Sequence record: PZ445456.1 | Direction: 5' to 3' (one strand) | Origin: a phage | DNA length: 39,315 bases | Part shown: in pieces, positions 23,615 to 26,544 of the stretch | Layout of the letters: each line of letters opens with the position of its first letter | How positions within the stretch are numbered: position 1 is the stretch's first letter | Made by a program: the position numbers and the translations under genes | The notes under the pieces: generated by a model | The model's database searches: none | Seen by the model: the letters and a program-made list of their open reading frames with translations, nothing else | What the model was told of the DNA's origin: nothing

Positions 23615-24526
23615 ATGGCTGGTGAATCTAACGCTGACGTATACGCATCTTTTGGTGTGAACTCTGCGGTTGTTGGTGGGTCTACTCCTACTGAACACGA
23701 ACAGGCTATGCTTGAACTCGATGTTTCTGCCCGTGACGGCGATGATGCAATCGAGCTAGTTAGCAACGATGACCCTTATGGCAATCCAGACCCATTCGGT
23801 GAAGAGGATGAGAGTCGTACTGAGATTCGCATCTCCACTGATGGTGAACCTGAAGTAACCGAAGAAGGTGAAATCGACTATGAAGGAACCGAAGATGAAG
23901 GCTCCGAAGAGTTTGAACCAGTTGGTGACGTTCCAGATGAACTGAACGAAGCCTCAAGTCAACTCGAAGAGCACGAAGCTGGTTTCGAAGAGATGGTCAA
24001 TCAGGCTGCTGAACGTGGTCTGTCAGAAGAAACCATCGTGCGCATCCAACAGGAATACGGAGAGGACGGTCTGTCTGAAGAGTCTTACGAAGAGTTAGCC
24101 AAAGCTGGTTACTCCAAGTCGTTTGTTGACTCCTACATCCGTGGTCAGGAAGCACTGGTAGAACAGTATGTTCAGTCCGTTATGGAGTACGCTGGCGGTG
24201 AAGCACAGTTCCAAGCAATCTACAATCATCTCGAAGTGTCCAACCCGGATGCTGCTGAGTCTCTGATTAGTGCATTGGAGAACCGTGACCTCGCAACAGT
24301 TAAAGCTATCGTGAATCTCGCTGGTGCAAGCCGTGCGAAGACTTTCGGTAAACCTGCTGCCCGTAGTATCTCTAAACGTGCTGTACCTGCTGCGCCTGTA
24401 CGTGCCAAACAGTCTGGCTTTGAGTCACAGGCTGAGATGATTGCTGCAATGTCTGACCCTCGCTATCGCCACGACAGTAAGTTCCGTGCGGAAGTTGAGC
24501 GTAAGATGATGTACAGTCAGTTCTAA
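23615..24526 (+). CDS. 9: Capsid assembly (scaffolding) protein, 303 aa
   Basis: ESNADVYASFGVNSAV, acidic Glu/Asp-rich centre, SYIRGQEALVEQYV, NRDLATVKAI.NLAG.SRAK, MSDPRYR match T7 gp9. Confidence 0.95.
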   Translation: MAGESNADVYASFGVNSAVVGGSTPTEHEQAMLELDVSARDGDDAIELVSNDDPYGNPDPFGEEDESRTEIRISTDGEPEVTEEGEIDYEGTEDEGSEEFEPVGDVPDELNEASSQLEEHEAGFEEMVNQAAERGLSEETIVRIQQEYGEDGLSEESYEELAKAGYSKSFVDSYIRGQEALVEQYVQSVMEYAGGEAQFQAIYNHLEVSNPDAAESLISALENRDLATVKAIVNLAGASRAKTFGKPAARSISKRAVPAAPVRAKQSGFESQAEMIAAMSDPRYRHDSKFRAEVERKMMYSQF

Positions 24527-24528
24527 AT

Positions 24529-24551
24529 TAATACGACTCACTATTGGGAGA
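24529..24551 (+). promoter_or_regulatory. Phage RNAP promoter (phi10-equivalent, major capsid promoter)
   Basis: TAATACGACTCACTATTGGGAGA, exact consensus; predicted start at G24546. Confidence 0.85.
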
Positions 24552-24604
24552 CACATCCAGATTGAGTGAGGTCTGGTCTGAAGGTTCGAGTCCTTCGTGT
24601 TTCC
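24548..24604 (+). other. tRNA-like structured element in the gene 10 mRNA leader (acceptor-like stem, one 5-bp hairpin, canonical T-arm; no D-arm)
   Basis: GAGACAC (24548-54) pairs with GTGTTTC (24597-603) as a 7-bp stem; CCAGA-ttgagtgagg-TCTGG (24557-76); GAAGG-TTCGAGT-CCTTC (24580-96), a canonical T-stem/T-loop. Not a standard tRNA. Confidence 0.4.
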
Positions 24605-24692
24605 TTTGAGTGATACACAATGAGAACCAACTCGTTTCAAGTAGTACCTCACATTTAAACTTTTATCATAAATCAACAGAAGGAGATTCAAC

Positions 24693-25736
24693 ATGGCTAA
24701 CATGAATGGTGGACAACAGATGGGTAAAGACCAAGGTAAAGGCATGAGCGCTGGTGATAAACTGGCTCTGTTCCTGAAGGTCTTCGGTGGTGAAGTTCTG
24801 ACTGCATTTACCCGTACCTCCGTAACTATGAACAAACACCTTGTGCGTTCTATTCAGTCCGGTAAGTCCGCGCAGTTCCCTGTGCTGGGTCGTACCAAAG
24901 CTGCTTACCTGCAACCGGGTGAGAACCTCGATGACAAACGTAAAGACATGAAGCACACTGAGAAGACCATTAACATTGATGGTTTGCTGACTGCTGACGT
25001 TCTGATTTACGACATCGAAGACGCAATGAACCACTATGACGTGCGTTCTGAGTACACTGCACAGTTGGGCGAGTCTCTGGCTCTGGCTGCTGATGGCGCA
25101 GTTCTGGCTGAAATGGCTAAGCTGTGTAACCTCCCGGCTAAAAACAACGAGAACATCGCTGGCTTGGGTACTGCAAGTGTTCTGGAAGTTGGTGAAGCAG
25201 CTACGCTTCAGGGCGACCAAGTGAAGCTGGGTCAGGCAATCATCGCACAGTTGACTCTGGCTCGTGCACGTCTGACTAAGAACTATGTTCCGTCTGCTGA
25301 CCGTACCTTCTACACGACTCCTGATAACTACTCCGCGATTCTGGCTGCTCTGATGCCTAACGCTGCAAACTATCAGGCACTGATTGACCCGGCAACTGGT
25401 TCTATCCGCAACGTAATGGGCTTTGAAGTTATCGAAGTTCCACACTTGACCGCTGGTGGTGCTGGTGAAGACCGTCCAGAAGAAGGCGCTAACCCGACTG
25501 ATCAGAAACATGCGTTCCCTGAGACAGCTAGTGGTGACACTAAGGTTGCTCTGGATACCGTTGTCGGCCTGTTCTGCCACCGCTCTGCCGTTGGTACTGT
25601 GAAGCTGAAAGACATGGCGCTGGAACGTGCTCGTCGTGCTAACTATCAGGCTGACCAGATTATCGCTAAGTACGCGATGGGTCACGGTGGTCTGCGCCCT
25701 GAAGCTGTAGGTGCGCTGGTTTTCAAAAAGGCTTAA
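24693..25736 (+). CDS. 10A: Major capsid protein 10A, 347 aa
   Basis: Full-length match to T7 gp10A (GGQQMG, GDKLALFLKVFGGEVLTAF.RTSVT, SGKSAQFPVLGRT, LTADVLIYDIEDAMNHYDVRSEYT.QLGESLA, AILAALMPNAANY.ALIDP..GSIRNVMGFEV.EVPHLTAGGAG, IIAKYAMGHGGLRPEA). Confidence 0.98.
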   Translation: MANMNGGQQMGKDQGKGMSAGDKLALFLKVFGGEVLTAFTRTSVTMNKHLVRSIQSGKSAQFPVLGRTKAAYLQPGENLDDKRKDMKHTEKTINIDGLLTADVLIYDIEDAMNHYDVRSEYTAQLGESLALAADGAVLAEMAKLCNLPAKNNENIAGLGTASVLEVGEAATLQGDQVKLGQAIIAQLTLARARLTKNYVPSADRTFYTTPDNYSAILAALMPNAANYQALIDPATGSIRNVMGFEVIEVPHLTAGGAGEDRPEEGANPTDQKHAFPETASGDTKVALDTVVGLFCHRSAVGTVKLKDMALERARRANYQADQIIAKYAMGHGGLRPEAVGALVFKKA

Positions 25737-25870
25737 CTTCTCGCAAACTCGTAGGGGACACTGAGTCCCTTACTGAAGTTGAGCAAGAGCTAACGCCACA
25801 ACAGAAAGCTGCCCGTACCCGTGCGGCAAACAAGGCTCGAAAGGAAGCTGAGTTAGCTGCTACTGAATGA
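25718..25870 (+). other. Putative -1 frameshift site and 46-codon extension producing minor capsid protein 10B
   Basis: G GTT TTC AAA AAG (25718-25730) 4 nt before the 10A stop; the -1 frame from 25730 is open for 46 codons (GLTSRKLVGDTESLTEVEQELTPQQKAARTRAANKARKEAELAATE) to TGA at 25868-25870. T7 makes 10B by frameshifting at this position. Confidence 0.55.
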
Positions 25871-25880
25871 TAACTATATG

Positions 25881-25922
25881 AAACCCCTTGGGTGCCTTCG
25901 CGGGTGCTTGAGGGGTTTTTTT
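25881..25922 (+). terminator. Tphi-like late terminator
   Basis: AAACCCCTTGGGTGCCTTCGCGGGTGCTTGAGGGGTTTTTTT; G/C-rich hairpin with G-U pairs plus a T-run, closely resembling T7 Tphi as recalled (AACCCCTTGGGGCCTCTAAACGGGTCTTGAGGGGTTTTTTG). Confidence 0.75.
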
Positions 25923-25945
25923 CTTAATGACTCACTAATGGGAGG
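25923..25945 (+). promoter_or_regulatory. Variant promoter-like element downstream of Tphi (phi11-like)
   Basis: CTTAATGACTCACTAATGGGAGG; -11..+5 conserved but the upstream half looks like the consensus with one base deleted; activity uncertain. Confidence 0.3.
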
Positions 25946-25953
25946 AAACCAAT

Positions 25954-26544
25954 ATGCGTTCCTATGAGACTACCCTAGAGACTGGAGAAGAGTTGACCGC
26001 AGTCAATGACATCTTGGCCTCTATCGGTGAACCGCCTGTGTCCACTCTGGAGGGCGATGCTAATGCTGACGTTGCTAACGCTCGTCGAATCCTCAATAAG
26101 ATTAACCGTCAGATTCAGTCCAAGGGCTGGACGTTCAACATCGAGGAAGGCCAACAGTTACTGCCAGACGTATTCAACGGCCTGATTCCCTACATGTCCG
26201 ACTACCTTGCTGTGTTCTCTGAAGGAGGTACTACCGCTTACGTCAACCGTGGCGGCTATGTGTATGACCGAGAGAACCGTACTGACATCTTCAAAGACCC
26301 CATCACAGTGACCATTATCAAACTGCGAGAGTTCTACGAGATGCCTGAATGCTTCCGCTACTGGATTGTCACCAAGGCTGCTCGACAGTTTAACAACCGC
26401 TTCTTTGGTGCGCCTGAGATTGATGCTGTCTTAGCTGAAGAGGAACAGGAAGCCAAAATGCAGTGCACCGAATACGAGTTAGACTTTGGTAACTTCAACA
26501 TGCTTGATGGTGATGCCTTCACGGGTGGTCTTCTGTCTCGCTAA
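25954..26544 (+). CDS. 11: Tail tubular protein A, 196 aa
   Basis: [85 protein letters not shown] match T7 gp11. Confidence 0.95.

Follow-up and report, generated by a model that had tools for sequence, protein, structure and literature searches.

The sequence record PZ445456.1, a stretch of 39,315 nucleotides (nt) analysed at its full length and hereafter called the window, is a near-complete genome of a T7-like (Berlinvirus-type) phage, and the end of its major capsid gene, gene 10A, very probably operates as a -1 frameshift cassette of the T7 gene 10A/10B type, with the ribosome shifting on the heptamer G_GUU_UUC and a stem-loop just downstream as the candidate stimulator. As proposed here, most ribosomes would terminate at the TAA codon at 25734-25736 to give the major capsid protein 10A. 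A minority, with GUU and UUC (25719-25724) in the peptidyl (P) and aminoacyl (A) sites, would slip back by one nucleotide, the valine and phenylalanine transfer RNAs (tRNAs) re-pairing to GGU and UUU, and decoding would resume in the -1 frame at CAA. The addition of 48 residues up to the TGA at 25868-25870 would yield the minor capsid protein 10B, predicted to comprise 392 residues (about 41.9 kDa). The slip would most likely be promoted by a two-helix stem-loop of 19 base pairs, and the adjoining AAA_AAG may give a small second chance of a shift into the same frame. The sequence anatomy, the homology, the coding constraint in the -1 frame and the covariation of the stem-loop were all observed for the window.

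The phenomenon itself is already known in Berlinvirus-type phages, because a slippage site is marked in phage BP12A, joined 10B coding sequences exist for phages Kvp1 and FE44, and a slippery-sequence note accompanies phage BA14. What is added here, modestly, is a reasoned choice of the shift site together with covariation evidence for a local stem-loop. A programmed -1 frameshift leading to a 10B-type protein had been proposed in a sequence-only reading of the window, and this proposal finds support in the capsid family, the tail homology, the coding constraint, the heptamer, the stem-loop and the precedent of Kvp1.

Probable shift site and -1 frame extension

The gene 10A product was assigned to the Pfam family Gp10A-like (PF21703, E=1.6e-104), and its closest solved structures in the PDB are capsid proteins of the T7 family (E=4e-175 to 5e-159). 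From the end of the heptamer to the 10A stop codon there are 9 nt in both the window and T7, with the same sequence in the same register, so that the two positions are exactly equivalent, as had been claimed beforehand. The same reading had placed GGTTTTC-AAAAAG four nt before the stop; the motif is indeed found at 25718-25730, and the gap measures three nt. In a comparison of about 60 related loci from viral contigs (cited below by L numbers) with T7, T3 and annotated relatives, R-GUU-UUC was retained in about 30 distinct sequences of the Berlinvirus-type, Helsettvirus-type (fPS/L015), Unyawovirus-type (Pectobacterium phages) and T7-type lineages and of two more, the sole change being the GGTTTTA of BA14. 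The six nucleotides that follow exist in at least 11 versions (AAAAAG, AACAAG, AAAACG, ACAGCG, AACGAG, AAAGTG, AAGACG, GCGGCG, GCACAA, AAGGGG, AAAGCG and AGCTTG) and, varying freely, they behave as a spacer. A 2016 review likewise names G_GU as the X_XX element of the T7 gene 10 site (PMC5009743). Of the two slippery runs put forward previously, G_GUU_UUC, being conserved and correctly spaced, is thus likely to be the main shift site, and AAAAAG is likely to be a variable spacer.

As only G_GUU_UUC is both conserved and properly spaced from the stem-loop, the expected junction is probably VFQK/GLTSRK (...ALVFQKGLTSRK...) and not VFKK/GLTSRK, which the sequence-only reading had favoured. The junction peptide computed for a shift on the heptamer is YAMGHGGLRPEAVGALVFQK, with an [M+H]+ of 2101.101, and that for a shift at the lysine codons is KGLTSR, with an [M+H]+ of 661.399. 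A GGUG resembling a Shine-Dalgarno sequence upstream of the heptamer was considered as a stimulator and rejected; it is due to conserved Gly-Ala codons and lies merely 4 nt from the heptamer.

No stop interrupts the -1 frame over the 55 codons between 25703 and the TGA; 48 of these follow a slip on GGTTTTC and 46 a slip on AAAAAG, the latter being the stop-free length reported earlier. The +1 frame closes after nine codons. Stop-codon readthrough into the tail was rejected on account of a second 0-frame stop (TAG) five codons beyond the TAA, as was independent initiation of the tail, the -1 open reading frame containing not one ATG, GTG or TTG. That such an open frame would be unlikely by chance, as was argued at first, carries less weight than supposed: at the stop-triplet frequency of the window (0.0506), an open stretch of 45 codons has a probability of about 0.10 and is weak as stand-alone evidence. 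The feature exceeds chance because of homology and the conservation of codon positions, not because of the open frame itself.

The tail, (Q)KGLTSRKLVGDTESLTEVEQELTPQQKAARTRAANKARKEAELAATE, aligned by BLASTP with the experimentally established tail of T7 10B (E=1e-11; in a conserved block, 19 of 26 residues are identical), and on its own it matched the 'head protein' family phrog_12582 (E=1.6e-19). Among 15 distinct sequences of the conserved block, 28 of the 39 minimum substitutions fall at third positions of the -1 frame (binomial p=1e-6); when read in each of the two other registers, the DNA of the block shows 12 stops. Taken at the level of sequence, these comparisons indicate that the -1 frame is a real coding extension.

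Protein evidence comes from Kluyvera phage Kvp1, a Berlinvirus with a capsid protein 92.5% identical to that of the window, an identical heptamer and stem-loop, and a tail differing by one residue; it departs from the window in its spacer, AACAAG, and hence has no A_AAG site. Lingohr et al. (2008, PMC2579914) observed a 43.6 kDa band from Kvp1 virions by sodium dodecyl sulphate-polyacrylamide gel electrophoresis, with peptides from matrix-assisted laser desorption/ionisation covering 10B residues 327-372. The published mass of 2244.123 was matched here to LVGDTESLTEVEQELTPQQK (computed 2244.124), a peptide identical in the window, and that of 2372.219 to the same peptide with an N-terminal lysine (computed 2372.219). 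The third, 2692.310, corresponds to the junction peptide YAMGHGGLRPEACGALVFQQGLTSR with carbamidomethyl-cysteine and oxidised methionine (computed 2692.308), as compared with 2678.293 if the shift took place one codon later. All three masses, the VFQQ junction included, match within 0.002 Da given the assumed modifications, their assignment to the junction peptide being our inference. The junction mass fits VFQQ and thereby a shift on G_GUU_UUC. By analogy, the PZ445456.1 phage would be expected to make 10B as well; for T7, whose virions also contain 10B, the shift efficiency is given as about 10% (display-vector paper).

The stem-loop behind the heptamer

When the 66 nt after the heptamer were folded, the stem-loop (Table 1) was obtained with a free energy of -25.3 kcal/mol; it makes up 76% of the ensemble, and its z-score relative to dinucleotide-shuffled sequences is -4.05. 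Between the heptamer and the first pair (25731) there is a gap of 6 nt, whereas AAA_AAG is left with no spacer at all; measured from the start of the P-site codon GUU, the pair is 12 nt away, which by standard geometry would be about the mRNA entrance of the ribosome.

To assess covariation, 11 distinct cassettes representing three lineages at the level of genera, the Berlinvirus, Helsettvirus and Unyawovirus versions, were aligned without gaps. Standard pairs are formed in 99.0% of cells; both partners have changed in nine of the 19 pairs, and 17 additional pair types are seen. On each of five measures the observed value was higher than in all 500 shuffles, and sliding the 3' partners by 1-3 nt lowered pairing to 30-54%, with at most three compensated pairs. 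The peptide encoded over the helices drifts (LVGDTESLTE, LGADSTLAPD, LGVTSMVASG) though the pairing is kept; the linker half of the tail is constrained as an RNA helix and weakly as protein.

In each of seven lineage representatives, the 70 nt that follow the heptamer rank with the most stable parts of gene 10, being equalled by only 0-6 of 190 control windows. L020, L084/L092, T7 and the T7-like L085 have different sequences and, like the window, form a stable compound stem-loop that begins 4-6 nt beyond the heptamer and holds the stop codon within its 5' arm; the z-scores in other lineages range from -2.4 to -4.6, with L051 weak at -1.5. The T7-group alignment, taken alone, retains the same architecture and shows only one-sided compatible changes and zero compensated pairs. 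Together, the position and conservation of the stem-loop point to its being the likely local stimulator of the shift. An Rfam scan of 24400-26100 at a permissive threshold returned no frameshift-element family, and no published description of the stem-loop was found in the literature covered, which did not extend to the primary 1991 T7 papers. In the Kvp1 paper, 'no typical slippage site' was noted and a pseudoknot was described 144 bp downstream, but not a stem-loop adjacent to the heptamer (PMC2579914); the Kvp1 record places the pseudoknot beside the terminator.

The first eight nucleotides of the internal loop (25741-25748, UCUCGCAA) hardly vary among the Berlinvirus, Helsettvirus and Unyawovirus cassettes, even at positions synonymous in the -1 frame, though they are drawn as unpaired. 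They may engage in a tertiary or long-range contact; a partner for UCUCGCAA was looked for and none was found. A broader proposal, in which the Berlin-type stem-loop is the local stimulator of its clade and part of the unexplained T7 stimulator, while a slip at the lysine site yields a second 10B isoform (Q or K at residue 345), is speculative and seems to us rather unlikely.

Table 1. Coordinates of the gene 10 frameshift cassette and its surroundings in the window (positions in nt).
Feature	Position	Strand	Remarks
Slippery heptamer G_GUU_UUC, proposed -1 shift site	25718-25724	+	0-frame codons GUU UUC
6-nt spacer AAAAAG, possible secondary Lys shift site (C_)AAA_AAG	25725-25730	+	followed by GCT, TAA
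10B-specific coding sequence QKGLTSRKLVGDTESLTEVEQELTPQQKAARTRAANKARKEAELAATE	25724-25870	+	-1 frame, 48 codons + TGA
Conserved block of 10B tail LTPQQKAARTRAANKARK	25790-25843	+	pattern LTPxQKAARTRAANKAxK
Two-helix 19-bp stem-loop, candidate 3' stimulator	25731-25784	+	
Lower helix	25731-25740 pairs with 25775-25784		10A stop codon within 5' arm
Internal loop, 5' side	25741-25750		10 nt
Apical helix	25751-25759 pairs with 25765-25773		5-nt loop 25760-25764
Tphi-like intrinsic terminator hairpin	25880-25919	+	terminator scan: 18 pairs, then T-run
Gene 10A, major capsid protein	24693-25736	+	0 frame, 347 residues, ~37.0 kDa, stop TAA 25734-25736
phi10-like promoter TAATACGACTCACTATTGGGAGA	24529-24551		upstream of gene 10

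The Tphi-like hairpin that had been placed just downstream of the tail was recovered by the terminator scan, the 10B TGA sitting 10 nt before it, and it contains CCCC in its 5' arm (25884-25887). In T7 the CCCC of the terminator takes part in gene 10 frameshifting by a mechanism that is unexplained (PMC5009743). By analogy, the terminator of the window may act as a long-range stimulator, at a distance from the shift site of about 160 nt as against 'over 200' for T7 (PMC5009743). A pairing of this CCCC with G-runs in or around the stem-loop was considered: the window, L015 and T7 have a GGGG, which the other T7-type phages lack.

Several observations weigh against the proposed cassette or its local stimulator and should be given fair weight. 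The documented stimulator of T7 involves the distant terminator (PMC5009743). A covariance model built on the Berlin-type stem-loop retrieved only its own lineage, with L084 marginal (E=0.21) and the T7-type structure undetected, so that the T7 element is analogous in place and shape and not demonstrably the same RNA. The ratio of nonsynonymous to synonymous changes (pN/pS) over the whole tail is only about 0.5, because the N-terminal linker half is poorly conserved as protein. Salmonella phage JSS1, the closest record (96.9%), annotates 10A only, and the natural relative L008 bears a premature stop in the tail. In T7, 10B is dispensable; this and the stop in L008 imply that selection on the product is not absolute.

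Comparison with known systems and competing explanations

T7 shares with the window the capsid family, the G_GUU_UUC heptamer in identical register 9 nt before the 10A stop, a -1 extension that ends just before Tphi, a homologous C-terminal block of the tail, a compound stem-loop 4-6 nt after the heptamer, and CCCC in the 5' arm of the terminator. It differs in having a tail of 56 residues (48 in the window) whose linker half is unrelated in sequence, and in the sequence and internal architecture of its stem-loop. Its spacer reads AAAGUG, whereas the AAAAAG of the window creates a second potential shift site at lysine codons.

The most serious alternative is that the -1 shift takes place mainly at these lysine codons, (C_)AAA_AAG at 25724-25730, to give the junction VFKK/GLTSRK, or that both sites contribute substantially in tandem. 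Given a stimulator, no tetramer shifts more readily in E. coli than A_AA.G, with U_UU.C behind it, and in BP12A, whose cassette is identical, the slippage site was annotated as AAAAAGG; the BA14 region has been turned into an in-register A_AAA_AAG, and L018 carries G_GUA_AAG at the equivalent place. As in the E. coli dnaX and insertion sequence (IS) signals of the A_AAA_AAG type, AAA_AAG in the window could let the lysine tRNA slip from AAG to AAA, in E. coli the A-site slip of highest efficiency. Those systems are nonetheless defined by an in-register X_XXA_AAG that is conserved and set 5-9 nt from the stimulator, whereas the window has C_AAA_AAG, of which only the A_AAG tetramer fits, the motif is unconserved, and the helix begins right after AAG with zero spacer; the perfect in-register heptamer is found in BA14 alone. 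The C_AA triplet makes for poor re-pairing in the P site, and a ribosome positioned on AAA/AAG would, by the inferred geometry, already have opened much of the lower helix, as the stem-loop starts directly after AAG. Kvp1 (AACAAG), P483 (AAAACG), A7 (ACAGCG), L078 (AACGAG) and all T7-type phages keep the tail in the absence of AAAAAG, and Kvp1 makes 10B all the same, its junction mass fitting a shift on the U-run. A predominant or tandem lysine-site shift is judged decidedly unlikely for these reasons, and G_GUU_UUC is retained as the main site.

Phages T3 and phiYeO3-12 offer a parallel, in that a minor capsid protein arises there from a -1 shift where a homologous capsid gene ends. They differ in shifting on the lysine codons of C_CCA_AAG and in gaining an extension of about 86 residues, a Big_2 immunoglobulin (Ig)-like domain (E=4.4e-10) unrelated to the tail of the window. 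Neither C_CCA_AAG nor a Big_2 extension is present in the window, whose fused protein gives only Gp10A-like in Pfam.

A shift at the level of transcription, in which the phage RNA polymerase would lengthen the U4 or the A5 run by one nucleotide and so bring the tail into frame, is very improbable. An additional U would encode the identical VFQK junction, and peptide masses alone therefore cannot separate the polymerase route from the ribosomal one. Efficient polymerase slippage requires runs of roughly 7-9 or more, and those in the window have just 4 U and 5 A. The covarying stem-loop at 6 nt and the kept codon register are ribosomal marks with no role in polymerase slippage, and the T7 event is treated as ribosomal in the review (PMC5009743).

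Equally remote is the idea of the tail as an unexpressed relic or a separate small gene translated alone: it is annotated as a free-standing coding sequence in ETEP21B, the fPS phages and Pectobacterium phages, and that of L008 is truncated, but the -1 frame offers no ATG, GTG or TTG, the tail is under in-frame purifying selection, and the heptamer, spacer and stem-loop are intact and identical over 73 aligned nt to the cassettes of phages with an annotated 10B.

Annotation of relatives, variant loci and gene context

The main value of the analysis lies in correct annotation, as public records of the cassette disagree. The 73-nt unit of heptamer, spacer and stem-loop is identical in the window, BP12A, JSS1 and others. 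The records of Kvp1, FE44, T7 and T3 give 10B as a joined coding sequence. The BA14 record notes a slippery sequence, BP12A (KM366096) marks AAAAAGG and Kvp1 marks TTTTCA, and JSS1 (OP185508) has no 10B annotated. Two groups thus differ over which 7-nt stretch is slippery within one and the same cassette. In ETEP21B (OR979722), fPS-89 and fPS-26 (LT961841 and LT961836) and Pectobacterium phages (MW001769, PV433196) the tail stands as a separate coding sequence, labelled 'minor capsid', 'hypothetical' or even 'major capsid'. The comparative data settle the likely site, G_GUU_UUC, and the expected junction, VFQK, for which exact diagnostic peptide masses are supplied above. The stem-loop, besides being a candidate local stimulator for T7-like phages, is a clean case in which the linker of a recoded extension is constrained by RNA structure and not by protein sequence; the 10B extension is also what underlies T7 phage display.

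Several related loci depart from the common arrangement. In Escherichia phage BA14 (L003), positions 1414-1426 read GGTTTTAAAAAAG, so that G_GUU_UUC is without its C and an in-register A_AAA_AAG of the dnaX type has arisen; a G to T change also affects the base pair closing the lower helix. The BA14 lineage may have switched its shift site. L018/L077 (IMGVR_UViG_3300013307_000032) has a T7-type tail and no U-run, its CTG GTA AAG forming the lysine-type site G_GUA_AAG, so that the shift site is exchangeable within the T7-type tail class. In L008/L079 (IMGVR_UViG_2700988866_000001, 38616 nt), a GAG to TAG change ends the -1 extension 16 codons past the codon overlapping the 10A stop and also breaks a U-G pair of the lower helix, making this a natural variant with a very short 10B.

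Other loci carry different extensions. L012, L025, L026, L218 (PcCB251) and L057 keep GGTTTTC or AGTTTTC and continue into a different -1 extension of about 91-100 residues (e.g. ...TLYFKGIAVGETLVTVSFEGS...) with no Pfam match, and others (L035-L045) have Big_2-like extensions. In L032 and L042 (IMGVR_UViG_3300034349_000001 and 3300034127_000003), the -1 extension is longer than 400 residues and continues past the end of the locus; it opens with a Big_2 Ig-like domain (E=5e-11), followed by about 320 residues without a Pfam match in which GDSL-like (FEGDSLT) and DGTHSN motifs, picked out by eye, are suggestive of an SGNH-type esterase. Judged from these motifs, the extension could be an enzyme displayed on the capsid via frameshifting. 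The sequences as a group indicate repeated exchange of the extension module, with the shift site in front of it conserved. A loose scan of viral contigs for GGTTTTC-N5-GGCTTAA gave mostly random matches and zero new cassette variants.

Within a phage collection, none of whose records is an exact match, the window comes closest to Escherichia phages Carena and nasanit (about 94% identity across 87% of the first 25 kb); over the gene 10 region it is most similar to JSS1 (96.9%), which is classified in Berlinvirus. The order of the T7 late region is retained: the phi10-like promoter is followed by gene 10, the terminator, a second phage promoter and the gene 11 homologue from 25954. Directly after the phi10-like promoter, a cassette of some 37 nt in the gene 10 leader (24557-24597) contains two small hairpins, CCAGAUU...GGUCUGG and GAAGG-UUCGAGU-CCUUC. 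The latter resembles the T-arm of a tRNA, and a U-rich stretch comes after it. Rfam gave only a chance-level tRNA-Sec match for this cassette (E=0.44) and ARAGORN detected no tRNA. The cassette is present in JSS1 and absent from Kvp1, and BA14 carries a longer unrelated segment in its place.

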